DNA of 64,000 bases from UHGV virus genome UHGV-1380027; one strand, given 5' to 3'. The notes below the pieces were generated by a model that did no database searches, had not been told where the DNA came from, and worked only from the letters and a program-made list of their open reading frames with translations. A program made the position numbers and the translations under genes. This DNA is from a virus. Positions 1,653 through 59,716 of the stretch are shown piece by piece (position 1 is the first letter of the stretch; every line of letters begins with the position of its first letter).

Positions 1653-1853
1653 ATGGCTGATTTTTGTAAAGATTGCTCTGAAGAGTTGTTTGGCTTTGAC
1701 TGCAAAGATTTGGAAGGTCTGATCACTGAGGATCAGTGGAAGGAAGGCTATGCAGCACCTGTTATTTGTGAAGGTTGTGGCTATACCTATGTTGACCATA
1801 AAGGTAAGCGCGTCAAGCCGTCTGAAGATGGGGCATGTTGGGAGTATTACTAA
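1653..1853 (+). CDS. small zinc-ribbon protein
   Basis: 66 aa with paired CxxC motifs (CKDC ... CEGC); start 4 nt after the upstream stop. Confidence 0.4.
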   Translation: MADFCKDCSEELFGFDCKDLEGLITEDQWKEGYAAPVICEGCGYTYVDHKGKRVKPSEDGACWEYY

Positions 1854-1866
1854 CTATAAAAAGAAA

Positions 1867-1891
1867 GGGGCCATTTGGCCCCCCTTTTTTT
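1867..1891. terminator. bidirectional rho-independent terminator between convergent blocks
   Basis: GGGGCC-ATTT-GGCCCC hairpin (1867-1882) followed by a T-run on plus and preceded by an A-run (T-run on minus); lies between plus gene end 1853 and minus gene end 1904. Confidence 0.7.
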
Positions 1892-1903
1892 ATCTACTAC
1901 TTG

Positions 1904-4900
1904 TTAAAGAGAGAAAGTCGCGTAGGCTCCCAGACGATACTGCTGGTCACCAGGGAACATAACACCTATAGAGGCTGTCCCTAGAATCCTGCCTTCCTTT
2001 CCAGACTCCATTCTGAACCCTACCCATCCTGAACTCCTTGCAGCCTCGATGTTGTCGCTATACCCGAAAGTGGCAAGATCGTCAACACCAGCCCCAAACA
2101 GCAACTGAAGCTGACTTCTCGGAAGCCCTATAATTTCAGGAATATATGCACCAAAGTACACCATCTGCCCTACCTTAGGACCGCTGCCGTACTCCATCGG
2201 CTTGCTTGTAGCAAAAGTCTTCATACCAGAAGTCCCTGCCGGATTAGGGTATGCCCCGTTTGTTGCTGTACCTATCCACATTCTCCACTGTGGTGTCATC
2301 TGTTTGACAGTAAAAGATGTTGAAGACGTTTTGCGACCTGCATCATCAGTAGCTACAAACTTTATAGTGACATTACCAGGAGCTTTAAATGTTACCAGCC
2401 CTGTGGTAGCATCCACTGTTGCAATGTTGGTATTACTGCTTTCCCAAGTCTTTCTAATCCCAGACACATTGGAAGGGGTAATAGAAGGTTCCTGCATCTG
2501 CAGTTTACCACCCACAATCCCTATGCCGTTACCTGGGTTATACAACGCACCAACTTCATCTATAATGTTACCTGCCTTGAGACTGTACTTCCTTGAGAAG
2601 TTGTAAGTTCCGTTATAAGCGTGTGTCCCTGAGAAGGTGACATCTGCTTTTCCGTAAGAGATGCAAACCAAAGCATACTTCCTGTCAGGCAACGTTTCTC
2701 CAGTCTCTGGGTGAGTTTTACCTACCTGGAACACACTCGGGTCAGTGGAGTCGTGGCTATCACTAACGGAGCTTGGACCACCCATCAGTTGTGACAAGCA
2801 ATTCCTTACCCATGTCCAGTTATTGTCACTGGAGAAGTCTACGGTCAAATCAAACACAACCCACTCATTTGGCTTCCACACAGGTGTTGTGATCAACTTA
2901 CCAACACCCCCACCCTGAAGAGTAGGAGATTGTTCAGTGATCAGGGCAGAGTATGCCAGAGTGCCCAACTGCATAGTCTGGCTTGCTGTCCTCACTACCT
3001 TAGAATCAGCATCTGTGAAGTTGTTGATGATCTGGAATGTGCCATAAGTGTTTTTACAGGTAATTCTGGCGTTCAGTGTGTCAATCTTCCTCACATCTGC
3101 CATAGCAGTGTTAGACACAGAGAAGTCAGAAGCTTTAGCTGAGTTTGCCGCAACAGCAGGATCAACGTTAAGAGTTGCGTTGAACTGACAAGCAGGGGTA
3201 ACCAGCAGCTTGTTATCACCTATTTGCTTCCATGAAACACTTTGAACAGGGAGATTCCATTTAATACCTGAGAAAACTTTAGCAACCCTTGGTCCCAGGG
3301 CTCCAGTCCTGTTGTCTTTACAGCACATGGACATGGTGATCGTTGACGGAGTTGCCTGACCAAACAATTGCTGTGCTTTTACAGAGGACATAGTGTAGAA
3401 ATTGTCCTTAACAAACTCATCAGCCGCTAACGATCCGTCAGATCTCCACCATTGTACCTGGTAGCCTGTCTTATCCCAGCCACCAACCTGCTTCAAGTCC
3501 TCCCAAGAGATTTCCAGATCCCCAGTGGTAGGGTTGATTGCCGCAGTTCCTGGTGTTCCAGATGACCATATTGGGATATCGAACCACGCTGGTTTAACAG
3601 ACTGCACTGCGTTAGGTCCTATTGCAGCAGCAAGTTGTTGACCCATCAATACGCGAGCATCTTTCACCAGGCCCCGCTCAATCATAGATCCAGAGTAACC
3701 CTCTTTCTTATATGCAGAGGACCCGTTCAAATGGATGAGCCTGCTGCAGTCGAAGCCATACGCTCCACCACCATTAGGGTCTGCGAAGTTAGTTATGATT
3801 CTATCCCTAATATTTTTCCATGCCCTACCCCCAATCTCGTAGTCATGGTCATAACATCTTTGCAGCGTTGTCCAGCAAATGATTGCCATTCTTCTGCCAC
3901 CTGTAAACCCGAAAGCGCCGTCATTCAACTCTTTCCACAGGTAGCAGTTAGTTGTCCACATAGCTCTGTGAATGTTGAACCAGTTTATGGACTTGGCTGA
4001 GTTATCCCACTGAGTCCCAGGTAATTCAGGCCACACTGCATTAACCAGCATGTCTTCTGTTCCTGCATCAACCAAGAACCCTCTTACCTTTTTACCCATG
4101 CCTACCCTGTCTTTTGCAATCCAACTGCCAAACAATCTCAGTTTTGGACCGTAAACAACATCTTCCGGATGCTCAAAAGAGACATACTTTAAGTAGATTG
4201 TTGGGTCACCGTAGGTGCCATCACAAACACTTTTGTGCATGTTTTCGCCAAGATCTAGACGAAGCCCTGTCACCACTTTAGACGTGTCAGTGAATTTGTC
4301 TGTTAAATCAAATTCATACCACCACCATCCACCACCAAGCATAAATTTCTTGCATCGAGTATTGTCTGTATCAGATATTCTCTTATCCCCTGCAAAAGGT
4401 GAATCAGCAAACTGATAATGCAGAGCAGTCTCGAATAGATGTGTTGAGGTTCCGTTTTCTGCAAGAACTTGCTTACCTATTAAGTCGCACTTAATGATCA
4501 TCACAACACGTTTGTACCCGTTTGTTACTGGAACTTGCATAGATATGGATGTTCCGTCCATGTTCGATCTTAGTGCTGTCATGATGATATATGGGTCAAC
4601 AGCGTTGCCTAAAGTTTCAGGCCCTGGGATTATCTTGTACTTCTTAACCTGCCCCATGAACCTGTCACTGGCGTAAGTTGCAGCCTCAAAGCAAGATCCT
4701 CCATTAGGCAGTTCGCCAGGACCCCAGAAAAATGCGCCATAACAGTTATAAAACCACTTGTTAGGGTCGTATTTGTTCTTGAAGGTCTGAACCTCGTTAG
4801 CCTGTTTTGTCAAGAAAACCTGCGTATCTGTAAAGATTGCAGGATTTACTCTCGCCTGACGTGGAGGGTACCCTGTCGATTGGTTAAACCACTGATTACA

Positions 4901-7540
4901 AGAGTAATCTCTCATATAGTCATAATCAGAGTATTTGTTTGCATCTTCGTTCCAACACATATTTAGGTTGGTACCGCCCATGCACACAATGTATTCTGCG
5001 ATATACTTATCGCTTCTGGTAGGAATACCTATGAACCATCTATTAACAGGCTCATCCCAAGCTGTGCGCTCATCTTTAACGCAGATAGCAATCCAGTCAT
5101 GTGTTCCTGTTTTCTTGCATACATCTCGCTTCATACCGTAGTAGAACTCTTTAGTATTCGGCTCAGGTGCATTTATCAGGTAACTCCATGCCTGATTTGC
5201 ATAAGTTCCATTGGTTCGCGGGTCATGATCAAAGGCATACATGATGATCCTTTCCCCACCAAGATGTTCGCCAAGAGTAACTTTGACATTCACATCGCCG
5301 TAACCATTGCGAACAACATCCATATTATCAATAGAGATGCCCCTAGGGGTGTAGGCAATTTTCAGAGAGCTATCTTCACTGGTGCCTCCAAGTGTAATCC
5401 CTATGTTGTTTGTTGTCCCGTCGGCATATCTTACTGTGGCTTCCCAGCGTATTCCGAAATATCCTGCATCATGGCTGACAATTTTCAGTGTACGAGCACC
5501 TGGGTGAGGTTTTCCAGGATCAGGCCAAGGGTCTGGGTGTTCGTGGACAGTCAACGACGTTCCGTTTTGCTCGTTAACCTGCAACATTTTACCGCCTCTG
5601 CCGTTAGGGTTGAACTCCCATACGGCCTGTGTCTGCACTAAGTTGTTGTAGGTATTTCGTCTCTGATCATAAATCTCTTGGGTAACATCATAGGTGACTG
5701 ATCCAGCATCCATTCTGTGGAGTCGGACCATATACGATGTATCTCCTTCTACCGCAGGCTGAGTCCCATTCAGCCCGAAGTATACAGTATCGTTAACATG
5801 GAACTGCTTGTTTCTACCAACGGTATGCCACTTACCGTCAGAAGGATACGCAGGAACTATGGTGTTCCAGTTCAAAGTCCTTGTCGTGTGAGTTCTTCCT
5901 GTGCCATGTTTGTCATGATAGGTTATTTTTACAGAGTACAGGCCACGTCTGTTAACATTCCTGTTATACTGAGTAACAACAACTTCGTTGGCCCCGCCGT
6001 GGTTCCAGTTGGTGGAGAATTGGTAATTTGCATCTGTAACAACCGTACCCGCAGCATTTACCAGTTCAATCTTGTCAATAATGAACGTAGCCCCCTCTGG
6101 CTGAGGCTTCAATTTCATCTTGACCGTGTCACCAATGTAAATATTGCTAACACTGCTAACACCGTTAACGTCAAAAATATCATCAACACCCCAACTGTCT
6201 ACTGGGACATTTTTATACCAATTCTCAGGAACCTCTGTGAACCCCTGACTATTAAGTCTGCCGCCAAACAGGTTGTTAGAGCCTGCAAAACTTCCCCTTG
6301 GGATGCCTGACCACCAAAGTTTACCATTAACAACAGTAAAGGTACCTAAAAAACCTTCTCTGTGAATGCCCTGGAAATAAACACTCTCTGTCCAGCTAAC
6401 TGGGAGGCGTTGCTCAACGTATTTGGCTGTGGCAAGAGCTTGATAGTGGATAAAATTGGCCCTAGGGTTATTGTTTGCAGATTGTGCGCCAATATCATTA
6501 CATAAGTTGCGAGAGAATCCGCGATACTGCTTAGTGCCATTATTGAAGAAAATGCCACTTGTTCCGTACCCACGAGCCATTATTACTTCATGGGTGTAGG
6601 TAATATTTAAGGAACGCCATGTATCATCTCCCCAGACATCTTGCCCGTAGAATACGTTAACAAGCTGCTGATCATTAGGCTTGTGCATCCTCTGCGTTGC
6701 AATTATCGCCCCGTTCGGACCACACATGAATCCTTTCCACTCCTCCTCTGCAGGAATGCCTTTCAAATCGTTGCGAGTAATCTGAGCAGGGGGCCAAACA
6801 AGGTCGTTTCTACTGTTGTTTCTCAGAAAGTCGTATCCAGCAATCCAAAAACCTCTGGGCCCACCGAAAATAACAGAGTTGTCATGCACCTCGCAGTTGA
6901 TACTTGGGTTTTTCCAAGGGCCTGTTTCAGGATTTTCCGATGTTTCACCAATCTTTACAGGGGTTGCATGCTGGTTCTTATCTACATGTAAAGATCCGTA
7001 GGTGTTGTTACCAGACCCGTACAGGTGTAAAATGCCGTCACCCTCAGCCTCTGCCATAACCCAAACAGTGTTGTTAATACCGCCCATTACCTCGATAAGG
7101 CGCTCTGGGTGGGTGTCAAGGTGCAATCCTTGAACAATCTGTTCCGGAAGAGGTGTCCACTCGTTTACGCAAACATCGTTACCACCTGCCGCAGTGGATC
7201 CGATAAGACCTGCAGTGCAGCCGATGTAGAAAAACTGGTTATCAAAAGTCCGGATCACAAACGCACGGTCTGCTCTCCACACATGATCAACATTCCAGGC
7301 CGTCTCGCTCGGGTAGTTTATAGGGTTACGATCCCCAGTGCGACACTCCCCGAACTTGTTATAGCCAGTAATATTAAGCTGACCATCGTCAAAAAGTATA
7401 GCTAAGCTATTTACATAAGCTACTGTAGTGCTTGTACCGTCACTGTTGTCTATTGGGTATGACAGAACAGCAAGTTCCTTAACTCCACCCCTCTTATCGA
7501 GGAAATGACGACCAAGTTTTAGCAAAGGGATTGGAAGCAT
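1904..7540 (-). CDS. giant multidomain tail fiber/adhesin-like structural protein
   Basis: 1878 aa ORF, last gene of the late operon; Gly/Asn/Thr-rich repetitive beta-type sequence; C-terminal stretch resembling bacterial Ig-like domains; position downstream of the fiber genes. Confidence 0.5.
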   Translation of the reverse strand: MLPIPLLKLGRHFLDKRGGVKELAVLSYPIDNSDGTSTTVAYVNSLAILFDDGQLNITGYNKFGECRTGDRNPINYPSETAWNVDHVWRADRAFVIRTFDNQFFYIGCTAGLIGSTAAGGNDVCVNEWTPLPEQIVQGLHLDTHPERLIEVMGGINNTVWVMAEAEGDGILHLYGSGNNTYGSLHVDKNQHATPVKIGETSENPETGPWKNPSINCEVHDNSVIFGGPRGFWIAGYDFLRNNSRNDLVWPPAQITRNDLKGIPAEEEWKGFMCGPNGAIIATQRMHKPNDQQLVNVFYGQDVWGDDTWRSLNITYTHEVIMARGYGTSGIFFNNGTKQYRGFSRNLCNDIGAQSANNNPRANFIHYQALATAKYVEQRLPVSWTESVYFQGIHREGFLGTFTVVNGKLWWSGIPRGSFAGSNNLFGGRLNSQGFTEVPENWYKNVPVDSWGVDDIFDVNGVSSVSNIYIGDTVKMKLKPQPEGATFIIDKIELVNAAGTVVTDANYQFSTNWNHGGANEVVVTQYNRNVNRRGLYSVKITYHDKHGTGRTHTTRTLNWNTIVPAYPSDGKWHTVGRNKQFHVNDTVYFGLNGTQPAVEGDTSYMVRLHRMDAGSVTYDVTQEIYDQRRNTYNNLVQTQAVWEFNPNGRGGKMLQVNEQNGTSLTVHEHPDPWPDPGKPHPGARTLKIVSHDAGYFGIRWEATVRYADGTTNNIGITLGGTSEDSSLKIAYTPRGISIDNMDVVRNGYGDVNVKVTLGEHLGGERIIMYAFDHDPRTNGTYANQAWSYLINAPEPNTKEFYYGMKRDVCKKTGTHDWIAICVKDERTAWDEPVNRWFIGIPTRSDKYIAEYIVCMGGTNLNMCWNEDANKYSDYDYMRDYSCNQWFNQSTGYPPRQARVNPAIFTDTQVFLTKQANEVQTFKNKYDPNKWFYNCYGAFFWGPGELPNGGSCFEAATYASDRFMGQVKKYKIIPGPETLGNAVDPYIIMTALRSNMDGTSISMQVPVTNGYKRVVMIIKCDLIGKQVLAENGTSTHLFETALHYQFADSPFAGDKRISDTDNTRCKKFMLGGGWWWYEFDLTDKFTDTSKVVTGLRLDLGENMHKSVCDGTYGDPTIYLKYVSFEHPEDVVYGPKLRLFGSWIAKDRVGMGKKVRGFLVDAGTEDMLVNAVWPELPGTQWDNSAKSINWFNIHRAMWTTNCYLWKELNDGAFGFTGGRRMAIICWTTLQRCYDHDYEIGGRAWKNIRDRIITNFADPNGGGAYGFDCSRLIHLNGSSAYKKEGYSGSMIERGLVKDARVLMGQQLAAAIGPNAVQSVKPAWFDIPIWSSGTPGTAAINPTTGDLEISWEDLKQVGGWDKTGYQVQWWRSDGSLAADEFVKDNFYTMSSVKAQQLFGQATPSTITMSMCCKDNRTGALGPRVAKVFSGIKWNLPVQSVSWKQIGDNKLLVTPACQFNATLNVDPAVAANSAKASDFSVSNTAMADVRKIDTLNARITCKNTYGTFQIINNFTDADSKVVRTASQTMQLGTLAYSALITEQSPTLQGGGVGKLITTPVWKPNEWVVFDLTVDFSSDNNWTWVRNCLSQLMGGPSSVSDSHDSTDPSVFQVGKTHPETGETLPDRKYALVCISYGKADVTFSGTHAYNGTYNFSRKYSLKAGNIIDEVGALYNPGNGIGIVGGKLQMQEPSITPSNVSGIRKTWESSNTNIATVDATTGLVTFKAPGNVTIKFVATDDAGRKTSSTSFTVKQMTPQWRMWIGTATNGAYPNPAGTSGMKTFATSKPMEYGSGPKVGQMVYFGAYIPEIIGLPRSQLQLLFGAGVDDLATFGYSDNIEAARSSGWVGFRMESGKEGRILGTASIGVMFPGDQQYRLGAYATFSL

Positions 7541-7588: not shown

Positions 7589-9334
7589 TTAACGTTGTGC
7601 AATAACCACATCCACAATATCACCAACACCACAATATGTCAATTGTAGCAAGGTGACACTGTTGGCTTTGTTGTTAATAACAGGAGTAGCCGACAGTATG
7701 GCATATTTATCGTGTAAAGTCACGTTGTGGCCTACAGCATCCTGAATGACATAGATGATTGCAGTGAACGGGTAAGGTTTATCTTCAGCCGATGTTCCAG
7801 GCCATTGCCCTATTGTAAAATCCCCTTTCGCGTGGACAACATACATATTGGCCTGCCCGTTAGGTGTCCATGTCCCACTAGATGCGTCAGCCTCCTCTAA
7901 GTCAAACTCCACCTTCCCTGCATGGAAAGCAGGGGCAGTAATAGTTTTACCAGCTTCAATTTCTTGAGAGGTGGTTATCTTGCCACTAGAGTTAATGCCA
8001 TTACAGACAAAGTTGACATTAGAGAAGTCTGGCAGCCACCCAGTCACTGTACCTGATATTTCAAGGTTGTGAAGGTGGGTGGTGCCAGTCCCTGCTGCGT
8101 TTAAACTAACATCTCCATTTACCTGCAAGTTTCTGGTAACGTTGCAGTTTTCAGAGTTTGCAGTTGTTGCAGTTAAAGTGGTGGTTGTCAGCTCGGTAAT
8201 TACACCTTTGTTGGCTGTAAGTCCTTCTCCTTCAAAAGTGGCACGCTCATTCACCCTCAGAGTATTTAAAGATATGTTCTGGACAGATGCTGTGCCACGA
8301 ATGACTATAGATCCTCCAACCTCTAAATCTCCATTGATCAGTGCATCTCCCGTGCTTTCAATATAGCTAGGGTAGATCATGGTGCCATCTACAGAGTAGG
8401 TTATCCCTGTAACGGTGCCTGTCACCTCAAGGTTCTTAACCCTAGTGGTCCCATCAACCTGCAATGTCGGTTCGGTGGCTGCCTTCATGGCATTACCGCG
8501 AATGTACACGTAGTCAAAAAAGTTATTACCTAGACCATCAAAATGCACATCGTTGTTATTAGCCACTGGTTTCCCAGAAGTTATAGTGTCAGCTATAACT
8601 CTGTGAGTTGATACTTCATGAGGTTGCAGCTCTGTGCTCCTCCAGTCTGCATGCTTAGGATCGCTCCACGCAAAAGTCAGTGTAGAAGTATTTGCCGTAA
8701 GGATTAGGTTCCTGAAGCGTGCAGTAGAATCTGCTCCATTAACAGGTCCGTGTAAGGTAAGGGTACCCCCAACTATAGTGTTAGCAAGTTCTGTAAGACC
8801 TTTTACCACCAAAGATCCTACAGTAACTTTCATCCCCTCCATGGCTTTAAATATGCTATCCACATAGTCAACAACAAACTCTGTGTTTGCTATAGACTCG
8901 GACTTATCATCCATTGGAGGTGTAGGTACTCTCGGGTCACCTTCGAACCTTGGGCTGTTAAGTTTTGCGTAGTATTTTGCCATTACTGCAGAGTCGGTGT
9001 ATAATCTCCAGTTCGGAGATTGTGAAGGATCTGCTGGCATCCTAACCGGGTTAGATTTTGACGCTGCTGGAGCGTACCACCACTGAGGGCCTGTATCTCC
9101 TTTAAACTCATACAGCTGGTTAAAAACTGTTGTGGATGCACCATACGCCCAAGGGATCGGTGGCGTTTTAAAATAAAGGTTGTCAAGCATGGCTTTTCGT
9201 ACCGTAGGGATAGTGGTCCCATCCTCTACGACAACTTCATCCACAGCGTTACCGTTGACAACCAAGTGCAAACGTTCAGAATCAACAATTACTTGATCTA
9301 CCGCCTGCTCGAAGCTTGTCATGTCTTGCGCCAT
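7589..9334 (-). CDS. tail fiber/tailspike protein
   Basis: 581 aa, Thr/Gly/Asn-rich repeats typical of beta-helical fibers; co-oriented within the fiber cluster. Confidence 0.45.
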   Translation of the reverse strand: MAQDMTSFEQAVDQVIVDSERLHLVVNGNAVDEVVVEDGTTIPTVRKAMLDNLYFKTPPIPWAYGASTTVFNQLYEFKGDTGPQWWYAPAASKSNPVRMPADPSQSPNWRLYTDSAVMAKYYAKLNSPRFEGDPRVPTPPMDDKSESIANTEFVVDYVDSIFKAMEGMKVTVGSLVVKGLTELANTIVGGTLTLHGPVNGADSTARFRNLILTANTSTLTFAWSDPKHADWRSTELQPHEVSTHRVIADTITSGKPVANNNDVHFDGLGNNFFDYVYIRGNAMKAATEPTLQVDGTTRVKNLEVTGTVTGITYSVDGTMIYPSYIESTGDALINGDLEVGGSIVIRGTASVQNISLNTLRVNERATFEGEGLTANKGVITELTTTTLTATTANSENCNVTRNLQVNGDVSLNAAGTGTTHLHNLEISGTVTGWLPDFSNVNFVCNGINSSGKITTSQEIEAGKTITAPAFHAGKVEFDLEEADASSGTWTPNGQANMYVVHAKGDFTIGQWPGTSAEDKPYPFTAIIYVIQDAVGHNVTLHDKYAILSATPVINNKANSVTLLQLTYCGVGDIVDVVIAQR

Positions 9335-9343
9335 GATTTCTCC

Positions 9344-9610
9344 TTAAGCTTTTTGCTCTTCGTTTTTAACGTGGTCAGGGTGCTGGCAACCCCACCGGAG
9401 CGAGATGAATTTGCTAATAAGCTGGGGGCAGGCTACTGAAGGTGCGTATATCCACGCATACCATTCAGGAAGCGTATCATTGTACCCCATATGAATAAAC
9501 ACCCCAGTCATCACTGCCATGCCTATGTTTGACCATAGCTTAGATTGGGACACTTTCGTAGGGTCATCCGATGCCGCAACCAACCCCCATAAAAACTGAG
9601 TTAATTTCAT
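9344..9610 (-). CDS. small membrane protein (holin-like or exclusion-type)
   Basis: 88 aa with two or three hydrophobic segments (FLWGLVAA, IGMAVMTGVFIHM, WYAWIYAPSVA) and a charged C-terminus; lies directly after a fiber gene. Confidence 0.3.
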   Translation of the reverse strand: MKLTQFLWGLVAASDDPTKVSQSKLWSNIGMAVMTGVFIHMGYNDTLPEWYAWIYAPSVACPQLISKFISLRWGCQHPDHVKNEEQKA

Positions 9611-9619
9611 TTACCCTCT

Positions 9620-10666
9620 TTAAGCATAAGATATAGTGATCCATTGACCGTTTACAAATTTTTGAATGGCACCAGTCCAATAGTCGCCTTGATACGGGTG
9701 TTTATAGGCGTAATTGCCGGAGCACATTACATGCCCAGGGTATACTCTTGATTCTCTGTAGGTGGTTCTGAAACGGTTTGCTATCCTTACATCTTCAACA
9801 CCCCTACTAGGCATAGGAATAGTAAGGTTACCACTGCTATCTGCGCTGCTACCATTTACCCTGCGGACCACGTTTCTCCCACCAACTGTTGCATATTGAC
9901 CCCTGGCGGTGTTATCGTTACAATCCACTCTTCCACCTATTTGAGCGCTGCCGCAGGATTGTTGTCCATTAACAGTGGCTCTTGGTATCGTTACCGCATT
10001 AGCATTTGCAGAGGAGCTTTTTGCATCATTGCATTCAAGATTCCCTTGGATAGCCAGTCTTGCACGGTTGGCAGTTATAGCATTAAGCTTCATAGCCGAA
10101 AACACAGGCTGCCCACCAGAAGGTTGAAATCTCCAACGGAAACCGTCTATTTGGTGAGAAGGATCATCAAGGTCTGTGCCGTCAGCGCCGCCGATGTTGT
10201 CCATAATCCAGAAATCCATCATCGTTTTGTCTGGAGTTATGGTGGTGTATATCGCTGCATTGTCTGTTGACGCGGATGCAAACTCGATTCTTTGAAGACC
10301 CAAAGTTTGAGTCTGGGTCATTGTGTCCCCAGTCTTGTCAACATACAGGTCATCCATTTCTTCAGGCGAGTATACATTGAGGACTTTACGTGCAGCAGCT
10401 TTGTCTGGAACGTCTGCCAGATTATTAGTGACCCTTAAGAATCTATTATCCCATCCAGGGACAACATCTTCTGTTAAATGCTTTAGCCACGCAGAGAGCA
10501 TGTGGAGTTCAAAGTTAACAACTTCACATGCTATCCTTTGTGTCATATCCCAACCTTTCAATCTCTCTTCTTTGTTCGGTTGAGACTTGTTCAACTCTCC
10601 TGTATTTTCAAGCACAACATCCTGATTGGCCCAAATATCGAGAGGGATAACTGGTTTAGTCATCAC
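9620..10666 (-). CDS. tail fiber protein (paralog B)
   Basis: 348 aa; N-terminus (PLDIWANQDVVLENT...) and C-terminus (KFVNGQWITISYA) parallel the 11679-12719 product, centre diverged; C-terminal motif resembles phage P2 gpH-type fiber tips. Confidence 0.5.
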   Translation of the reverse strand: MMTKPVIPLDIWANQDVVLENTGELNKSQPNKEERLKGWDMTQRIACEVVNFELHMLSAWLKHLTEDVVPGWDNRFLRVTNNLADVPDKAAARKVLNVYSPEEMDDLYVDKTGDTMTQTQTLGLQRIEFASASTDNAAIYTTITPDKTMMDFWIMDNIGGADGTDLDDPSHQIDGFRWRFQPSGGQPVFSAMKLNAITANRARLAIQGNLECNDAKSSSANANAVTIPRATVNGQQSCGSAQIGGRVDCNDNTARGQYATVGGRNVVRRVNGSSADSSGNLTIPMPSRGVEDVRIANRFRTTYRESRVYPGHVMCSGNYAYKHPYQGDYWTGAIQKFVNGQWITISYA

Positions 10667-10753
10667 ATTCTCCTGAGAAAATTCCTTAAGGACTATTTTA
10701 ACACTTTAGAGAACAAAATGCAAGAACGGCATCCTTACCGTTCTTACCTTTGT

Positions 10754-11068
10754 TTACCTTTTACTATGCTCTACAAGCATGTGCAAAATCTTTTGTACAT
10801 CAGCTCGGATACCGGAGACATCTGTCCTGACATCTTGCTTAAGGTCGTTAATATCGGCCTCTAGCTTACTTAACCGGGTCTCGATAATGGAATCAAGTCT
10901 ATCTTTTGTAACCATGCTATTTTTCACTAAAATGAGGTCTTTCTCCAGCTCATCCAACCTCTTGGAAATGCCTTTCCATTTGGTGTGCCACTGGTTGAAA
11001 GCCCATACACAGATCGGGACAACGGTACCCATGCAGATACCGTACAATGCCGCCAAATCCAACTCCAC
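10754..11068 (-). CDS. membrane-anchored coiled-coil protein
   Basis: 104 aa: one N-terminal hydrophobic helix (LAALYGICMGTVVPICVWAF) then a heptad-like charged region; function not assignable. Confidence 0.3.
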   Translation of the reverse strand: MELDLAALYGICMGTVVPICVWAFNQWHTKWKGISKRLDELEKDLILVKNSMVTKDRLDSIIETRLSKLEADINDLKQDVRTDVSGIRADVQKILHMLVEHSKR

Positions 11069-11079
11069 AACACCTCCTC

Positions 11080-11664
11080 TTAGAGGGTAGGTCGTTCCGG
11101 GAAGAAAATGTCAGGGGCTTTAGATGTATCTATTTCAAGAAGTTTTACCCTGTACATTTTCAAATCTCTGATGTTGCGTTTTTGGTCATCAGTAAGATCG
11201 TATTCAAGGTCAATCATGTCTTGATAGGCACCAATTCTAGCAGTAGCCCAAGCAAGTTCTGTCTCTATGACACCCTCTGCCTGTTGAACAAAGAATTCAT
11301 TGTCTGTGACAAATTCATCACCAACTAAACGCAAAGCGTCGTGGTGGAGCATAATGTTTTCTGGTACCTCTTCTTTTTTGGCGATAACCACACGAAGACC
11401 TGGAGCAGGCCACAAGGCATCAGGTTCTTCTGTAGATGTCTTAAGAATACCCTTCTCGTCAACAAGTAAGAAGATACAGCCGGGATTTTCTTGTCGCAGT
11501 GTTCGTGATTGCACATACCAATCGCCATCATCATTACGTAAAAAATATCCAGTGTATGCTGTGTAATCCTCAACCTCCTGAGGAGTCAGCTCCTTGGTCT
11601 CCTTGTTGGTGTAGTATTCGCCAGATCCCGGTTGGTAAAGTTTAAACTCTTGAAGTATTTTCAT
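11080..11664 (-). CDS. tail fiber assembly chaperone (Tfa-like)
   Basis: 194 aa directly downstream of a fiber gene; size and C-terminal region (MYRVKLLEIDTSKAPDIFFPERP) consistent with Caudovirales fiber assembly proteins. Confidence 0.45.
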   Translation of the reverse strand: MKILQEFKLYQPGSGEYYTNKETKELTPQEVEDYTAYTGYFLRNDDGDWYVQSRTLRQENPGCIFLLVDEKGILKTSTEEPDALWPAPGLRVVIAKKEEVPENIMLHHDALRLVGDEFVTDNEFFVQQAEGVIETELAWATARIGAYQDMIDLEYDLTDDQKRNIRDLKMYRVKLLEIDTSKAPDIFFPERPTL

Positions 11665-11678
11665 GCTAGTCCTCCGAT

Positions 11679-12719
11679 CTACGCATAATTAACAGTGATC
11701 CATTGACCATTTACAAGTTTTTGTAAAGGTCCTGCCCAGTAGGTTGAACCACGCATCTCTTTTTTATCACCAAAATGCCAACCTGTGACAACGTAGCCGT
11801 TGCGAACTGGAGATTCAGAAACACCATCAACAAGTCTTGCACCGATTCTGATATCCTGTACCCCTGTCTGCGGGATGGTGATCGTTACATCTCCGTTACC
11901 GTTAGCCGTCACTCCATTCACAGAGCGCACCACATTTCTGTTACCGACAACACAATGCTGGCTTCTTACAACCATACTGTCACAACTTGCACCGCCATCA
12001 ACATATACGGACCCAGCTGTCAACTGACTAGCCACATTACAGTTGGTGAATGTTGCTGTGCTGCTGATGGTAAGGTTGTTACACCGCATGTTATCGACAA
12101 CTTCAACATTACCTACCACTTTCAACAGCGCACGGTTAGCCGTGATCGCGTTCAGGTACATCAAAGTGAACTCTGGATTAATGTCTGGCTGAGTTGGCTG
12201 GAATCTCCAACGAAACGCATCTACTGTAGATGTGCCACCATCATCAAACGCCCCAGTGTTATCACTTAACCCAAAGTCGAGAGTTGTCTTATCTGGACCA
12301 ATAGTTGTCTCTATCCAAGCCTTATCTGTCTCGGCAGCTTTAAAGTTGATACGCTGCAAACCTAAGGGGCCTGTCATTGTATCGCCTGTAACTTTTACAT
12401 ACCTGGCGTCTGCCTCTTCCTTAGTGATAATCCCAAGGTTTCTACGGGCAACAGGAATGTTCAAAAGATCGCTCAGGTTATTATCACGTACCAGATAACG
12501 GCCCTCTTGGGCAGGGATCTGCTCGTCAGCAATATATTTTGCCCAAGTCCCGAGCATATTGAAAATATAGTTAAGTTCTTCACATGACGGCTTTTGACCA
12601 AGATCCCAACCTTTTCTCCACAAATCATCAATCGGGCGTAGCCTGTTCTGTCTGTGGGTGTTAGGCAGAACCTGATCCTCCTCTGCCCAAATCTCTAATG
12701 GAAAACTAGGTTTTGACAT
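11679..12719 (-). CDS. tail fiber protein (paralog A)
   Basis: 346 aa; shares N- and C-terminal modules with the 9620-10666 product (C-terminus KLVNGQWITVNYA). Confidence 0.5.
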   Translation of the reverse strand: MSKPSFPLEIWAEEDQVLPNTHRQNRLRPIDDLWRKGWDLGQKPSCEELNYIFNMLGTWAKYIADEQIPAQEGRYLVRDNNLSDLLNIPVARRNLGIITKEEADARYVKVTGDTMTGPLGLQRINFKAAETDKAWIETTIGPDKTTLDFGLSDNTGAFDDGGTSTVDAFRWRFQPTQPDINPEFTLMYLNAITANRALLKVVGNVEVVDNMRCNNLTISSTATFTNCNVASQLTAGSVYVDGGASCDSMVVRSQHCVVGNRNVVRSVNGVTANGNGDVTITIPQTGVQDIRIGARLVDGVSESPVRNGYVVTGWHFGDKKEMRGSTYWAGPLQKLVNGQWITVNYA

Positions 12720-12731
12720 TTTATCTCCTGA

Positions 12732-14804
12732 TTATGAGAAGTCTGGCGGAACAACATCTTCTACATACCCTTTCAGAGCAACCTGCCCCATATGCAGAAC
12801 AGTAGAATCTCTGGCGGTAACAGTGATGCTGTCAGACATTACTTGCGGGTATGCCCACACATACTGTTTTACCTCAGGGTATCTATACTCTATGGTTGCC
12901 ATGTTTCCGCAAATACATCTCCATAAAAATTCTTGGTAATTCCTGGTTGGGTCGTAGCCATATACCGGAGCAAGCTCTTTGCTAGGAACGAACCCTGCAA
13001 GGTATTGTATTTCAGACGGTTTCCAACCTAACTTAACGATAGGTATGTTTACAGACTCTTTTGCCTTTTCAATACCTCCCTGCATCACCCAATCGTAGCA
13101 CTCAGTGCAGAAGAAATCAAGAGCACCTGCTTCCTTTTTATATTGGTCAGCAAGGTTCAGTTTTTGCGTAAGCTCGGTTTCCATAATAGTGGGGAAAAAC
13201 AGTAAAGCTGTCATCTGAGCCGATGCAGCGTGTGCTTTTATTGCCTTTGAAATGGCTGCAATACGAGCGCCAAGCTTACCACGACAAAATGCTACATACT
13301 TGTCATAAACACCGCCAGTTTTAGGATCGTCAATAGTCCCAATGTCTAGTGCATATTCACCAGTCTCATCATAAAACGCCTGCTTTGTAGGGTAGTCATA
13401 AATACAAGGCTTACGAGTATCGGTATTGAACCACCACCACGGTTCACCAATCTGCATAATCACTGGTAGGTTGTTTCTCATAGCGGCTGATGCAAAATTC
13501 TTAAATACTGCAGTAAGGAAATTCATGCCCTCTTCAATGGTTGGAGACAGGAGGTAACTACAAGGCGTATAGCCTGTTTTAGCATAGTTATCGTTCCAGT
13601 CTCTCTGGGTCCATTCCAACGGACAGGCATCGCTATAAAGCTCAAAGCTTACAGACTGCATAACGTCGAAGTCATGTCGTTTGGCATTGTACATAAAATC
13701 ATCATGCCATTTATAAGCTGCAGCGTTTAGAGCTCCTGTTTTGTTTATAGACCATTGGGTTCCTGACCATGTGTAGTCATAATAATGGCTCATACCAACA
13801 TAATGGTTTATGGTTCCTGTATAGCCCAGACGCTTGATATTGCTCAACACCCTTAAAGGGGATACGTTCCACATATCGTCATATGCTGTGCAGATCCCAA
13901 CATCGTGTTCTTTCACCTGAATATTGTTAAGTTGCATCATTTTCCAGCCTGTGTCCGGCTGAAGAAGATCTAGACGCAACTCACACTCTACATTTTCCGT
14001 TCTCGGGTCTGTGCTATTACCTACCCAATCTTTAGGCATAAGTGGTATTAGAATCCTTCTCACCTGCCGAGGATCAACACCCATCATGTTGTTGTTCTGG
14101 TCCATCCCGACGCAGTCCTCGAAATCAATATGAATTTCTGCAACATTCTTATCCTCTGAGATGCTGACAGCATATTGAGCTAAAGGAACATAGATGATTG
14201 TACCATCAACAAGGTCTACAGGCATAATCATCTTTTCAGGGGTGGAGAAGTTGCTGGCATTGGTTATTGACATTCTGAACCAAAGCTTGGTGTTTCTCAT
14301 CTCGTAGTGATCATCAAATCCAATGCCGAAATGGTCATACTTGTCAACTGTTTCCCAAATGCACCCAGCCATGCCCCCATATGTTCTTGACACTAAACGG
14401 TTAATACAGCAGTTATTATCCGCAACAATACAGGTGCTTTCAGTCTGCTGTGTGGTTGTAACCCAGTATCTTGGGTGAAACATTCTCTCCTCAACTGTAT
14501 CCCAAGATATTCTGTCAAGATTCTCATCTGAAACTATTGTACATTTCGCTCTTTGTGTTCCAATCATAACCCCTTGGGAGTTTGATGAAAACTCCATAAA
14601 GAAGCTCCTTGGCAACCTGTTTGGCAATTTGTCAACAATTTCTACAGGGATCTCGATACTGGTTGCCCCAACCGGGATAGTTACATCGCCCTCAACATGA
14701 TCATAATCCCTACCCGGAACTGCAGTATCTTGAACTGTGCGGTAATGAAACCGTGCAGCCATTGTAGAGTAATCACGGTAAGGTTTAAAAACAGCTGTTG
14801 CCAT
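12732..14804 (-). CDS. tail-associated protein, possibly enzymatic
   Basis: 690 aa between baseplate-like genes and fiber genes; Trp/Tyr/Asp-rich sequence suggestive of a carbohydrate-active fold; no specific motif confirmed. Confidence 0.35.
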   Translation of the reverse strand: MATAVFKPYRDYSTMAARFHYRTVQDTAVPGRDYDHVEGDVTIPVGATSIEIPVEIVDKLPNRLPRSFFMEFSSNSQGVMIGTQRAKCTIVSDENLDRISWDTVEERMFHPRYWVTTTQQTESTCIVADNNCCINRLVSRTYGGMAGCIWETVDKYDHFGIGFDDHYEMRNTKLWFRMSITNASNFSTPEKMIMPVDLVDGTIIYVPLAQYAVSISEDKNVAEIHIDFEDCVGMDQNNNMMGVDPRQVRRILIPLMPKDWVGNSTDPRTENVECELRLDLLQPDTGWKMMQLNNIQVKEHDVGICTAYDDMWNVSPLRVLSNIKRLGYTGTINHYVGMSHYYDYTWSGTQWSINKTGALNAAAYKWHDDFMYNAKRHDFDVMQSVSFELYSDACPLEWTQRDWNDNYAKTGYTPCSYLLSPTIEEGMNFLTAVFKNFASAAMRNNLPVIMQIGEPWWWFNTDTRKPCIYDYPTKQAFYDETGEYALDIGTIDDPKTGGVYDKYVAFCRGKLGARIAAISKAIKAHAASAQMTALLFFPTIMETELTQKLNLADQYKKEAGALDFFCTECYDWVMQGGIEKAKESVNIPIVKLGWKPSEIQYLAGFVPSKELAPVYGYDPTRNYQEFLWRCICGNMATIEYRYPEVKQYVWAYPQVMSDSITVTARDSTVLHMGQVALKGYVEDVVPPDFS

Positions 14805-15501: not shown

Positions 15502-16992
15502 TTAAATAGTTTGTTGGAAAGTTATATTACTTTCGTCTAGATCAAACACCTCAGTCATGTTTGCAACAATATCGTTTGTGGTGTAAGCTTCATCAGAGGC
15601 CCCCACAGGTTTGACTTGAATTACAAGTCTGTTAAATCTGCCTATTGACACAGCAGCCGATGCAGCACCAACCAATTGGATATTGTACAACGTATCTGCA
15701 ACATCCAGTCCGTTAACAACCTGCAAAAGAGCCTCTACAATGGCATCTTTTTCTGTTGTGGAAAGCGCAGCACCTGAGTAGGTAATTCTTACATCTAGGC
15801 GGTAGGTATTTGCCTTGGAGTAATAAATCCTTTCAGTCTGACCGTCTGATGTGGTAATATCGTAGAAGATATTCCCATAAGTTCTATTTGTGCAAGCTAT
15901 GGTTTGATACAGCGCCTGACAGATATCCTCTGTTGCACCACCAAACACCACCACTTGAAACTTATAAGGTGGTATACCTTTCGCATCCGTTTTATCGGTG
16001 TTGTTAGAGAACACTCTTACTTTCTCAACACCTTTCACCTCGCTTACAGCGCTAAGGATTGCAGGACGGGTAGCTTTAGATGTCAGCTGTTTAGTGCTGG
16101 AAGCTCTTAAGCGATACTCAGAGTCTTTCTCAACATCCCTGCCCTCATTGAATCTTTCTCGGTTGGTAAGCTTGATAAATCCACTGGGAGTAGGTGACAT
16201 TGTTGTCACGGTTTCTGCCCCTCTTGACAGCTCACCAGCCTCGTTAGCGATAACATCTAGGGTGATAGTTCTTTCCCCTACAATCGGGGATACTCTGAAA
16301 TCTACCCTGCTATTAAGTCCAACTTGATAAAGATTCGAATTGTACCCTATCCACAACGTCCCTGTCAACATATCTATCTGAATTAAATCATCATTCAGCA
16401 GGGTTGTATTATCGACAATGAATTGCTTAATCTCGCCGTAAAAGCTTGGCAAATCAGAAGAGTCCAGAGCCTTATCTGTTAAAACCAGACTTTTTGTTTT
16501 GATACTTCCGTCTGTCTGGTTGGTAATTTGAAAGTTGTATTTCCCAATTCTTAGGTCTGGAGCGTTTATTCTGTGAGCAATAAGATTTCCCGCCACCTGC
16601 ACATCGTTGCTAAGAACAAAGTTGCCACTGTCCAGCGTATAAGTTTTGGAATCATAAATCATATTGTACGGCACAGTTGTGTTGATTGTCAACTGGCAGG
16701 TACCTGATGATTTAGAACGGCCTCTTCGGTAAATACCCTGTCTTCCAAGAAGCTCATCTAGGTAAATACCTTCTGCCCCGTACAGCGTCTGCGATGCGTA
16801 TACAGATGCTGCCATAAGAATAAGTTGATACTCTCGCTCGTTGAAGATAGTGGTCAGCTTATCTGCAACGGAGTTACTCTGTACGTTGAAGTTTTCGCCA
16901 AAAGCACGGATCAGGCTTTGCTTAGTTTCAACGATTAGGTCATTTAGGGTTGGTATAACGAAACCAGCCTCTGTCAATCCATACTTAGCCAC
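15502..16992 (-). CDS. baseplate J-like protein
   Basis: 496 aa; N-terminal region (YGAEGIYLDELLGRQGIYRRGRSKSSGTCQLT) resembles baseplate J / T4 gp6-family wedge proteins; gene order. Confidence 0.4.
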   Translation of the reverse strand: MAKYGLTEAGFVIPTLNDLIVETKQSLIRAFGENFNVQSNSVADKLTTIFNEREYQLILMAASVYASQTLYGAEGIYLDELLGRQGIYRRGRSKSSGTCQLTINTTVPYNMIYDSKTYTLDSGNFVLSNDVQVAGNLIAHRINAPDLRIGKYNFQITNQTDGSIKTKSLVLTDKALDSSDLPSFYGEIKQFIVDNTTLLNDDLIQIDMLTGTLWIGYNSNLYQVGLNSRVDFRVSPIVGERTITLDVIANEAGELSRGAETVTTMSPTPSGFIKLTNRERFNEGRDVEKDSEYRLRASSTKQLTSKATRPAILSAVSEVKGVEKVRVFSNNTDKTDAKGIPPYKFQVVVFGGATEDICQALYQTIACTNRTYGNIFYDITTSDGQTERIYYSKANTYRLDVRITYSGAALSTTEKDAIVEALLQVVNGLDVADTLYNIQLVGAASAAVSIGRFNRLVIQVKPVGASDEAYTTNDIVANMTEVFDLDESNITFQQTI

Positions 16993-46558: not shown

Positions 46559-48106
46559 TTAGATAAAACGCTTGAACATAGAAGGTGATGAGATTGATGG
46601 AATCACACAAGGCAGCGCTACCTCCTCTTTCTCCAGGAAATTAATCGCAGAAGCTACACAGTCGGCCCAGTCGTCTTTTCTGTTAAATGTTGATCTTTCC
46701 CCGTTGAACTTTTCAAGTTCAGTTAGAAATGCTTCCAGAGTGTCAGGATGGAAACTGGATTTTACAATCCTCACCATTCCTTGTTGGGCAAGATTGGCAA
46801 AGGGTGAGAACCTTGTCAGTTTAGATTTGTTGGAAGGCATTGGATCTTCTTCAACCCTGAACCCTTCGGCGAGCAAGGATCTGGACGAGGTTAAGAACTC
46901 ACTCTTACCTGCCTGACCGGGGTCCACAGAAAATACGATTATGCAATCATCTCCATCAAACTGCGCCTGTTTCCTGATGATCACATCTCGTTCCCCAGCC
47001 TTTTTACAGAACTTTCCTTCCAGACCTGTGGAATACCTACCGTCATCCACGTTCTCAGGACAATAATCCCCGGACAGGTAATAAAAGCCGTCGCTATCTT
47101 TACTTACCTTAACACTGGCGGTAAAGTCAGGAAATTTATTACCGGAAGTTCTCTCGGTTCCTGCTTTATCCCATGCCCTGCAAGATACTGATCCAAGAGG
47201 TACTCTATCGGCATCACGAAGGAAAGATCTTTGGAAATAGTTTGCACCCTCAGGTTTGGCAAACCAGTTGCCATGAAGAAGCTGGGCTTTTTCAAGCTCG
47301 GGTAGACCTTCAAGGAAAGCAAGGTATTCCGGGTTGTCTCTCAAACAGACAGGATTATCGAAAATTGTTGCGCCTATAAACGAGAATGACAACGGTCTTG
47401 GCTTGATCTCCACACCCAGTCCGTTAACCGTGGTGTATTTCTCTATTAACTCTTCTTTAGAGTCTCCCCAAATAAATTCACCGTCGCGTCGGATAAAATA
47501 TCTTTTCTTACCACATTTCTCCGGATCTGGATACCCTTCATCGTCCAACCACCACCTAACCAGTTTGGCAAGCATGTGTTCTGAGTCGGGGTTACAGCTG
47601 ATAACCATTCTTGATGGATACTTTGACTGAGATCGCAGACGAGACATCAAATAGTCTATCTGCTCCCATTCGAATTGCGTGCCTTCATCGAAGCAAACCA
47701 TGGTGTACTCAAGGCCTTGATGGTTAAGCTTATCTTGGACATACTCCATGTGGCAGTATTTTACAACGGCCCCCTTTTTGCTCCTGTCCCACTTGCCAGT
47801 GCTCGGATCAAACCGTGGAAAAATAAACTTATGATCCTTCTCTCTGAACTTTGGTTTAATGTTTTCAGGCAGATCACTGTAGATAGCTACTGCTTTAGGC
47901 CATAGCCCACCCTCACCTTCCAACTGGGGAGTTGTTCTTCGGAACATAACCACAGAGCTGTGCGGGTCATCAATAATTTTAAGCGGCATTAGCTGCAAGA
48001 GGAACGACTTGCCAGACCCAGCTGCACCTCCGATCACCAAAATATCTGCATCGTTCTCTAGGATCATCTTCTGCTTTTCAGAACACGGTCCGTAAATCTT
48101 AGACAT
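46559..48106 (-). CDS. terminase large subunit
   Basis: 515 aa; Walker A motif GGAAGSGKS near the N-terminus; position ahead of portal. Confidence 0.85.
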   Translation of the reverse strand: MSKIYGPCSEKQKMILENDADILVIGGAAGSGKSFLLQLMPLKIIDDPHSSVVMFRRTTPQLEGEGGLWPKAVAIYSDLPENIKPKFREKDHKFIFPRFDPSTGKWDRSKKGAVVKYCHMEYVQDKLNHQGLEYTMVCFDEGTQFEWEQIDYLMSRLRSQSKYPSRMVISCNPDSEHMLAKLVRWWLDDEGYPDPEKCGKKRYFIRRDGEFIWGDSKEELIEKYTTVNGLGVEIKPRPLSFSFIGATIFDNPVCLRDNPEYLAFLEGLPELEKAQLLHGNWFAKPEGANYFQRSFLRDADRVPLGSVSCRAWDKAGTERTSGNKFPDFTASVKVSKDSDGFYYLSGDYCPENVDDGRYSTGLEGKFCKKAGERDVIIRKQAQFDGDDCIIVFSVDPGQAGKSEFLTSSRSLLAEGFRVEEDPMPSNKSKLTRFSPFANLAQQGMVRIVKSSFHPDTLEAFLTELEKFNGERSTFNRKDDWADCVASAINFLEKEEVALPCVIPSISSPSMFKRFI

Positions 48107-48393
48107 TAACCTCTCTCCTTTGGAAACAGTGTTCTTATATAGTCTTGCAAAATGATCAATTTAGCTCTATCATTACTACAAGACAGGTTATTATCCCTCA
48201 TAATGCCAGAATTCACCGCATCTGGCGCACCTTTCTTCAAAGGGATAGCCTTAGCAGGAGGCTTCATAGCACCCTCGGGAGGTTTAACAATCAACCTTCC
48301 TACATCCGGAGGGTCAATCCTGTATTCTCTCTCAACGCTGGTTGCACACCCACACAATAACAAGCACAAAACAACCAGTGCAGTAACTCTCAT
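48106..48393 (-). CDS. outer-membrane spanin-like lipoprotein (Rz1-like)
   Basis: 95 aa; signal peptide with lipobox-like LLLCGC; Pro-rich mature region (DPPD, KPP, KPPAKAIP); start overlaps the stop of the upstream membrane coiled-coil gene. Confidence 0.55.
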   Translation of the reverse strand: MRVTALVVLCLLLCGCATSVEREYRIDPPDVGRLIVKPPEGAMKPPAKAIPLKKGAPDAVNSGIMRDNNLSCSNDRAKLIILQDYIRTLFPKERG

Positions 48394-59509: not shown

Positions 59510-59716
59510 ATGAAAGATTTTCTGTTGGCAATTTTATTCATGGCAGCATGCTTTGCCTGTGGTGTCGTGTTTGCAGGTGAAACAGCGTATCTTGTAGATG
59601 TATATCGGGACAATGGTAAACGTATTTGCCTTTATGAAACAAGCCAAGGTGAGCTCTACGAGCTTGTGAAACAAGGCGAGGCTGGATCTTGTCCTCGGAC
59701 TCACTTCTTCGAATAA
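59510..59716 (+). CDS. small secreted/lipoprotein-like protein
   Basis: 68 aa; N-terminal hydrophobic segment with lipobox-like FMAAC; RBS AAGGAG; adjacent to endolysin; holin or o-spanin role not established. Confidence 0.35.
   Translation: MKDFLLAILFMAACFACGVVFAGETAYLVDVYRDNGKRICLYETSQGELYELVKQGEAGSCPRTHFFE

Follow-up and report, generated by a model that had tools for sequence, protein, structure and literature searches.

A candidate holin or lysis-timing protein of the phrog_1322/DUF2644 family and a membrane-anchored coiled-coil protein among the tail-fibre genes of an rV5-like phage

Which protein opens the cytoplasmic membrane to the endolysin in phages related to rV5, and do two small genes lodged among their tail-fibre genes take part in lysis? 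The question is raised by UHGV virus genome UHGV-1380027, of which a stretch of 64,000 nucleotides (the window) was analysed here. An earlier note, made from the sequence alone, had singled out two small open reading frames (ORFs) between the fibre genes, for proteins of 88 and 104 amino acids (p88 and p104), and had suggested holins or receptor-masking superinfection-exclusion proteins as candidates. Both genes hold up, with exact coordinates (Table 1), Shine-Dalgarno (SD) sequences and wide conservation. With a confidence little better than even, we regard p88 as a candidate holin or lysis-timing membrane protein, on the basis of its family membership and the gene context of its homologues. 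The kind of system is a known one, and what is new is the function assigned to one of its members. The genes are already catalogued, under the names "hypothetical" and "membrane protein" and, erroneously in some records, as "tail fiber protein". In a nucleotide search, positions 9000-11700 of the window are 99.9% identical to the Escherichia phages EI-SP-GF and vB_EcoM-ECP26, and 95-98% identical to FV3, the rV5-like typing phages and the BASEL Vequintavirus isolates; judged by these identities, the source phage is a Vequintavirus, an rV5/FV3-like phage of E. coli.

The assignment begins with the family to which p88 belongs. Residues 1-87 of p88 align with positions 1-86 of the 87 in phrog_1322 ("membrane protein") at an expect value (E) of 2.7e-32. 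An exhaustive profile search with the p88 family over 1.8 billion representative proteins retrieved 128 members of 56-163 amino acids; a further match, P0361 (695 amino acids), looks spurious. All of the 118 representatives tested match phrog_1322, and seven of them also match the Pfam family DUF2644 (PF10841; best E 6.3e-7). Members are recognised by an S-H-T-K-x-W-x-N-I-G motif, two helices rich in Ala, Gly and Thr, an end of the SKFLSLRYG type and a polar, charged tail. About a dozen of them have an additional, strongly hydrophobic N-terminal helix and thus a three-helix form, and some metagenomic homologues carry a C-terminal extension of 30-50 residues rich in Tyr, Asp, Ser and Arg (RYSD-like repeats); forms with the extension or the extra helix were noted among P0004-P0013 and P0281, P0294, P0300, P0311 and P0316.

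The members found in the lysis cassettes of Mu-like phages form a subgroup that contains the DUF2644 proteins. An hhalign comparison of this subgroup with the Vequintavirinae-type alignment gave a probability of 99.6% (E 2.6e-24 over 76 columns), and the cassette members match phrog_1322 with E of 1e-17 to 1e-23. A tblastn search with one of them, the DUF2644 protein P0257, likewise recovered proteins of Klebsiella phages (42% identity, E 1e-14) and of rV5-type phages (37-39% identity, E 2-6e-9). By these profile and pairwise alignments p88 is homologous to the lysis-cassette/DUF2644 proteins, a link that we consider solid.

The neighbourhoods of these homologues point to lysis. Among nine metagenomic members looked up, the homologue lies immediately downstream of an endolysin gene at four loci, and the same is true in two cultured phages. 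At locus L014 a GH108 endolysin is followed by the family member P0293, a protein with a transmembrane domain (TMD) and a coiled coil, and a lipoprotein with an LSFSGC lipobox. In L017/L018 a Mor activator and a Peptidase_M15_4 endolysin precede P0292, and a 168-residue inner-membrane spanin (i-spanin) gene with an embedded lipoprotein ORF follows, with a TraR-like protein next and Mu gp27 at a greater distance. A Phage_lysozyme protein (E 5e-38) stands before P0270 in L023, with DUF2730, Mu gp27 and terminase genes further on, while in L030 an M15_4 endolysin is followed by P0257, a clear DUF2644 match, and two overlapping ORFs. L019 has P0283, an i-spanin-like protein and a lipoprotein with LISGC, in this order. 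The cultured Mu-like phages repeat the arrangement: Ralstonia phage RS138 has a late activator, an endolysin (ORF26), the family member annotated "membrane protein" (ORF27) and an Rz-like spanin (ORF28), and Pseudomonas phage Bise has Mor, an M15-type "protease" and then the family member. Spanin-like genes follow the homologue directly in L014, L017, L019 and RS138, with L030 and Bise as further probable cases. The run from endolysin to spanin contains no small membrane protein other than the family member in L014 or, going by the annotation of its record, in RS138. The contigs of P0281, P0263, P0266 and P0264 were too short or had no recognisable neighbours, and were uninformative in this respect.

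That the same small membrane protein stands beside three unrelated types of endolysin is a mosaic pattern typical of lysis cassettes, and the slot occupied by this family is that of the holin. The holin-slot context is an observation of the present analysis: the family is called a holin in no database, phrog_1322 and DUF2644 carry no function in PHROGs or Pfam (the PHROGs category is "moron/host takeover"), and DUF2644 is mentioned in no paper found by our literature search.

A holin is also what the lysis genes of the window itself call for. The endolysin, of the lysozyme family, has neither a hydrophobic N-terminal segment nor a signal-anchor-release (SAR) domain in a scan for hydrophobic segments, and therefore requires a hole-forming partner. 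The two spanin genes lie directly upstream of the terminase gene, away from the endolysin. A scan of the non-overlapping coding-strand ORFs of the window found no other small protein with two strongly hydrophobic segments, which bears out the earlier statement that the window contains no other clear holin. Besides p104, the credible proteins flagged by the scan were the i-spanin, the outer-membrane spanin (o-spanin) and the product of a 68-residue ORF just downstream of the endolysin; a 70-residue ORF that overlaps the end of the 1878-residue fibre gene was flagged as well. The N-terminus of the 68-residue product is the most hydrophobic one in the window (19-residue mean 2.68) and precedes a soluble domain that contains Cys; it is a "putative membrane protein" in rV5 and FV3, and might be a secreted or lipid-anchored lysis accessory. 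Published analyses of related phages differ. The rV5 paper nominated gp129 as the holin, being the only protein with two TMDs by both TMHMM and Phobius; the candidate in the paper on CB7 (Certrevirus) is an unrelated protein of 65 residues beside a SleB-like hydrolase, and for KPP-1 no holin was found. There is thus no agreed holin for this group of phages.

From its sequence, p88 itself is predicted to be a weakly hydrophobic hairpin. Its ATG is preceded by the SD sequence AAGAGGG. An AlphaFold2 model of low confidence (predicted local distance difference test, pLDDT, 62) is purely helical, with helices at residues 3-11, 22-43 and 49-72, and the weakly hydrophobic stretches cover approximately residues 25-43 and 49-70. 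The 19-residue Kyte-Doolittle mean does not exceed 1.05, against a usual threshold of 1.6, and the helix means are 0.9-1.1. Of the "multiple hydrophobic segments" ascribed to the protein earlier, two helices can therefore be retained, and these are hydrophobic to a weak degree. The tail is charged (RWGCQHPDHVKNEEQKA); in the family, tails contain on average about 4 Lys/Arg and 3.5-4 Asp/Glu. All subgroups of the family share the same distribution of Lys/Arg, with about 4 residues ahead of helix 1 and again in the tail, against about 0.4 in the loop, from which we predict that p88 forms a hairpin of two weak helices with the loop outside and both termini in the cytoplasm (N-in/C-in). Annotators have disagreed on this point: with TMHMM and Phobius the rV5 authors listed no TMD for the counterpart gp29 (the p104 counterpart gp31 is "membrane protein, 1 TMD"), and one TMD was assigned to the gp29 homologue of PVP-SE1. 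A Foldseek search of the p88 model against BFVD gave nothing at E<=0.001 and its top matches are uncharacterised members of the family; two matches named "holin" (E 0.8-2.9) are meaningless.

Class II holins, which have two TMDs in N-in/C-in orientation, are exemplified by the S68 pinholin of phage 21, and holins encoded beside fibre genes by T7 gp17.5 and T4 t. In common with class II holins p88 is small, is predicted to belong to a late operon and to form a hairpin with both ends cytoplasmic, and has a charged tail. Its gene lies next to fibre genes and not to the endolysin, as do those of T7 gp17.5 and T4 t, a likeness of position only. Unlike class II holins, it has helices of much lower hydrophobicity, and neither it nor its family shows a sequence relation to a characterised holin family, the only "holin" cross-match of the cassette members in PHROGs being non-significant (E 0.059). 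Low helix hydrophobicity is, however, common to the lysis-cassette members as well; being a trait of the family, it is no argument against p88 specifically. If p88 is the holin, it would insert into the cytoplasmic membrane as an N-in/C-in hairpin and accumulate while the fibre operon is expressed as a late operon. It would permeabilise the membrane at a set time, the signal-less endolysin would reach the cell wall, and the spanins would then disrupt the outer membrane. We infer hole formation and a role in lysis timing for this phage from the relatives in which lysis genes adjoin the family.

The distribution of the two genes and their positions have to be considered before the alternatives can be weighed. 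Homologues of p88 occur in 374 phage records, from Vequintavirus, Seunavirus, Certrevirus, Mydovirus-type Klebsiella phages, phi92-like phages, Phapecoctavirus and Aeromonas and Pseudomonas myoviruses, and homologues of p104 in 224; neither gene is therefore a chance ORF. PVP-SE1, CR8 and CB7 share the gene order fibre, chaperone, p104, a protein with four transmembrane segments (4-TM protein), p88, next fibre, in which stop codons overlap the start codons that follow. The slot of the 4-TM gene is occupied in Vequintavirus by the second short-fibre paralogue. The 4-TM proteins of Seunavirus and Certrevirus have 152-157 residues and four strongly hydrophobic segments (L005 4312-4785, L007 4336-4794, L011 5592-6050); searches of Pfam and NCBIfam with these proteins, p88, p104 and their relatives returned only coiled-coil noise. 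The phi92-like phages and Pseudomonas phage PsgM04F carry the p88 homologue immediately before the gp6/J-like wedge gene, and a protein of 111-113 residues with the architecture of p104 follows the chaperone. Two distant metagenomic myoviruses (L024 and L026) have a p88-type gene before the wedge gene and a p104-type gene after a short fibre without a chaperone. Together with the phi92-like order, this indicates that p104 tracks the short fibre and p88 the baseplate/fibre module. The Septuagintavirus paper contains nothing on genes of either type.

Neither product has been found in the virions of relatives, in agreement with the earlier view that the two proteins are not structural. Shotgun mass spectrometry (MS) of rV5 yielded no peptide of gp29 or gp31, among only 19 proteins identified. 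The virion proteome of CB7 (26 proteins) includes all flanking products (CB7_27-31, 36 and 37) and lacks CB7_33, CB7_34 and CB7_35, the "putative membrane proteins" that correspond to the p104 homologue, the 4-TM protein and the p88 homologue, as well as the chaperone CB7_32. Likewise, gp144 and gp149 of phi92, the homologues of p88 and p104, are absent from the list of head, neck, tail, baseplate and fibre proteins in the 2026 near-atomic cryo-electron microscopy (cryo-EM) study, the structural paper on phiTE mentions no proteins of either type, and both family profiles retrieved only proteasome and GCN4 noise among all PDB chains. MS readily overlooks proteins that are small and hydrophobic, and the fibres were poorly resolved; with this proviso, the absences support the view that p88 and p104, which we take to be inner-membrane proteins, are not parts of the virion.

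Several observations weigh against p88 as the holin. Beyond its weak helices and the missing TMD call for gp29, p88 itself gives no match to PF10841 even at E<=10, and in this phage its gene is separated by about 49 kilobases (kb) from that of the endolysin and by about 38 kb from those of the spanins, so that the linkage to lysis genes is seen in homologues only. L030 has another membrane protein upstream of its endolysin, and in the Mu-like cassettes the family member could be an antiholin or another accessory. The stable position of both genes in the baseplate/fibre module across distant myoviruses also fits a role in assembly. Finally, gp129 has two strong TMDs and a basic tail, and is closer to a textbook class II holin. 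We also have to consider, therefore, that gp129 is the true holin of Vequintavirus, and that p88 is a lysis accessory (an antiholin, a pinholin-like protein or a timing modulator) or has some other membrane function. The protein (78 residues; basic tail RKEKKESRDGDRT; encoded outside the window, at L031 659-895) was the sole rV5 product given two TMDs by both predictors, and its two helices are strong where those of p88 are weak. Against this stands its narrow distribution: homologues were found in the genus Vequintavirus only (116 records, 53-100% identity within the genus), whereas the p88 family extends throughout the Vequintavirinae, the phi92-like phages and beyond, and among the 117 records that exceed 60% identity to p88 only two fall below 95%. 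It is, moreover, the p88 family that stands alone between endolysin and spanin in L014 and, by annotation, RS138. As gp129 is limited to one genus and the Certrevirus candidate is unrelated, no alternative holin is conserved across the group, and we consider it unlikely, if worth keeping in mind, that gp129 is the holin and p88 something else.

Alternatively, p88 and p104 may be membrane-associated morphogenetic factors that fold, trimerise or attach the short fibre or baseplate at the inner side of the membrane and are then discarded like Tfa. The gene order is tightly kept and of ancient origin: a short-tail-fibre gene or its chaperone precedes p104 in every case, and the p88 family is present in the baseplate/fibre module of Vequintavirinae, phi92-like phages, PsgM04F, Aeromonas Plateaulakevirus and the two distant metagenomic myoviruses. 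The chaperone, too, is missing from CB7 virions. A morphogenetic function does not account for the Mu-like homologues, which lie at the start of the late operon between endolysin and spanins and far from the tail genes; no chaperone family was matched, and the position of p104 after a fibre without Tfa in L024 and L026 fits a link with the fibre and gives no mechanism. We rate this explanation as rather improbable. Superinfection exclusion or receptor masking in the manner of T5 Llp or lambdoid Cor, the other function proposed earlier, had in its favour only the position beside receptor-binding genes and the membrane location, and is now very hard to uphold. Neither protein has a lipoprotein signal peptide with a lipobox, both lie in predicted late operons, past the time when exclusion would be useful, and the recurrent partners of the p88 family are endolysins and spanins. 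The receptors, in the BASEL study, are glycans (enterobacterial common antigen and lipopolysaccharide core), which an inner-membrane hairpin could not mask, and conservation is high for both genes, in contrast to the variable distal fibre genes. That p88 and p104 are minor virion components on fibres or baseplate would agree with their location in a structural module and with the labels "tail fiber protein" and "structural protein" given by some depositors, and is scarcely credible in view of their absence from the virion inventories above. We consequently retain p88 as the candidate holin or lysis-timing protein.

For p104 the evidence takes a different course. Its GTG start lies 4 nucleotides after a strong SD sequence, GAGGAGG. 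The FV3 RefSeq entry (NC_019517.1, 22902-23180) uses an internal ATG that has no ribosome-binding site, giving 92 residues and losing half of the hydrophobic helix; the 104-residue GTG form, as in the rV5 and BASEL records, is the better start call. The single-pass, coiled-coil architecture previously described is borne out: residues 3-25 are hydrophobic (19-residue Kyte-Doolittle mean 1.9) and precede a charged helical region, and an AlphaFold2 model of low confidence (pLDDT 63) is purely helical, with helices at 3-51 and 56-103. Among 54 members of the family there are no Lys/Arg and about 1.5 Asp/Glu before the TMD, and about 2.9 Lys/Arg in the 15 residues after it. By the positive-inside rule p104 is thus predicted to be N-out/C-in, with an acidic periplasmic N-terminus of four residues, one TMD and a cytoplasmic coiled coil of about 75 residues. 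In its size and composition this charged coiled coil is like gp57A, a chaperone of T4, which would speak for a role in morphogenesis. The p104 family (phrog_5345, to which a profile match joins the phi92-like phrog_15210) has about 120 members of nearly constant length (104-113 residues), all from this supergroup of myoviruses, and contains no Pfam domain. An anchor of this orientation, which tracks the short-tail-fibre gene and not lysis genes, does not suit a holin, so that the earlier holin idea survives for p88, whose homologues lie beside endolysins and spanins, and not for p104.

Two membrane-tethered lysis proteins invite comparison with p104. The releasin gp25 of phage Mu, needed to free the Mu SAR endolysin, has 99 residues and an N-out/C-in topology with four periplasmic residues and a cytoplasmic domain of 73 residues (Chamblee et al. 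2022, PMC9239132). The predicted p104 has nearly the same size, about four periplasmic residues, the same orientation and a helical cytoplasmic domain of similar length (about 73-75 residues in both); it also shares the lack of Lys/Arg before the TMD, the basic residues at the junction of membrane and cytoplasm and, as predicted, late expression. Unlike gp25, however, it is encoded about 48 kb from an endolysin that has no SAR domain, leaving nothing to "release", and it follows a short-tail-fibre gene in every lineage examined. Homology was not detected: BLASTP of p104 against gp25 gave E 0.098, hhalign against DUF2730-type alignments gave 6% probability (with a three-sequence alignment) and, in a further comparison, 0.8%, PF10805 (DUF2730) was matched neither by p104 at E<=1 nor by PVP-SE1 gp44 at E<=10, and this family is not among the 25 most-matched ones listed for 54 members of the p104 family. 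Cross-matches of the family in PHROGs are marginal (phrog_736 at E 0.003-0.01, phrog_462 at 1e-4) and no better than those to i-spanin families. After four homology tests p104 as a releasin homologue is unproven, the likeness being one of architecture. With i-spanins p104 shares the N-terminal TMD and coiled coil, and one relative weakly matches phrog_739 (E 2e-5), but its N-terminal flank is acidic and without Lys/Arg, where the i-spanin of this phage has two, and its predicted orientation is the opposite. On this reversed charge bias and the lack of a lipoprotein partner, the next gene being a tail fibre without any ORF bearing a lipobox, we reject it as an i-spanin; the phage already has a canonical spanin pair.

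The likeliest site of action of p104 is the cytoplasmic side of the membrane, where it would assist lysis as a partner of p88 or, tethered there, help to handle the short tail fibre; both roles are conjecture. A more elaborate proposal, for which we would allow a low probability, is that p88 and p104 constitute a conserved two-part module of lysis control, in which a holin of DUF2644 type is joined by a tethered coiled-coil regulator analogous to the Mu releasin and both are embedded in the baseplate/short-fibre operon in a large clade of myoviruses. A parallel is the co-occurrence of DUF2730-type and DUF2644-type genes in the Mu-like contigs L023 and L017. These contigs (L017 2443-2787, L023 1584-1928) encode, a few genes downstream of the DUF2644-type gene, an N-out protein of 114 residues with a TMD and a coiled coil that belongs to phrog_462 or DUF2730/phrog_736, a pairing that mirrors that of p88 and p104 with homology to p104 not shown. 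If the two-part module existed, the lysis clock would be coupled transcriptionally, and perhaps physically, to the completion of the tail, and the DUF2644/DUF2730-type pairing in Mu-like lysis regions would represent one ancient, unrecognised system.

Vequintavirinae and phi92-like phages rank with the most frequently isolated phages of E. coli, Klebsiella and Salmonella, and therapy cocktails make use of them. The holin of the group was never identified, the papers offering genus-specific candidates or none, and p88 is the single candidate conserved across all of it. The assignment suggests a function for the unannotated DUF2644 and phrog_1322 families and would correct the labels "moron", "tail fiber protein" and "structural protein". 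Should p104 prove to be a partner, membrane-tethered lysis factors of the releasin type would extend beyond Mu-like phages.

The order of genes around p88 and p104 was derived by mapping the window onto the annotations of rV5, FV3 and AlexBoehm, and the genes of interest are all on the minus strand (Table 1). From the hairpin behind it, p104 is predicted to be the last gene of a late operon that would run from the baseplate to the short fibre. Table S4 of the rV5 paper gives the predicted late promoter P030 as TTGTTCTCTAAAGTGTTAAAATAGTCCTAAGGAATTT; this sequence recurs with one extra base in the 87-base-pair gap after p104, where, by sequence, it is likewise a predicted promoter. The P030-like element would drive the second short-tail-fibre paralogue, p88 and the next fibre gene. 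In this next predicted late operon p88 would come second, and the end of the operon would be marked by the hairpin behind the gp28-type fibre gene.

Table 1. Features of the window that bear on p88, p104 and lysis, in order of position
Feature	Coordinates	Strand	Basis or remark
70-residue ORF	1750-1962		hydrophobic-segment scan
1878-residue fibre (rV5 gp27)	1904-7540	-	mapping to relatives
Terminator-like hairpin after gp28-type fibre gene	7581-7560		rV5 counterpart t028
Lateral tail-fibre protein (rV5 gp28), directly downstream of p88	7589-9334	-	phrog_4549, E 4e-251
p88, 88 residues, ATG start (rV5 gp29)	9344-9610	-	ORF and SD; phrog_1322
Short tail fibre, paralogue 2 (rV5 gp30)	9620-10666	-	phrog_4465, E 1.8e-163
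Late-promoter-like element, GTGTTAAAATAG core	10679-10716	-	counterpart of predicted rV5 late promoter P030
Terminator-like hairpin just after p104 stop	10720-10747	-	12-base-pair stem, then ATTTTGTTCT
p104, 104 residues, GTG start (rV5 gp31; phrog_5345)	10754-11068	-	ORF and SD
Tail-fibre assembly chaperone Caudo_TAP (rV5 gp32), directly upstream of p104	11080-11664	-	PF02413, E 1e-11; phrog_136, E 1e-36
Short tail fibre, paralogue 1 (rV5 gp33)	11679-12719	-	phrog_4465, E 1.4e-170; AlexBoehm annotation
TIM-barrel fibre protein, 690 residues (rV5 gp34)	12732-14804	-	mapping to relatives
rV5 gp35 counterpart	between gp36 and gp34 genes	-	mapping to relatives
Baseplate wedge (rV5 gp36)	15502-16992	-	mapping to relatives
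Large terminase, 515 residues	46559-48106	-	ORF
o-spanin lipoprotein, signal ending LLLCGC	48106-48393	-	sequence
i-spanin, N-in TMD and periplasmic coiled coil	48390-48788	-	topology contrast for p104
Endolysin (lysozyme family)	58976-59446	+	ORF and sequence; FV3 homologue annotated endolysin
68-residue ORF downstream of endolysin	59510-59716	+	hydrophobic-segment scan

Two minor observations concern the records of related phages. Positions 9000-11700 are also matched by 16 GenBank records named "Campylobacter phage" (MG0656xx series), two of them listed at about 95% identity; these records are probably mislabelled or derived from contaminated isolations. The large terminase is encoded here by one uninterrupted ORF; that of rV5, according to its paper, is broken up into three segments, with a homing endonuclease.

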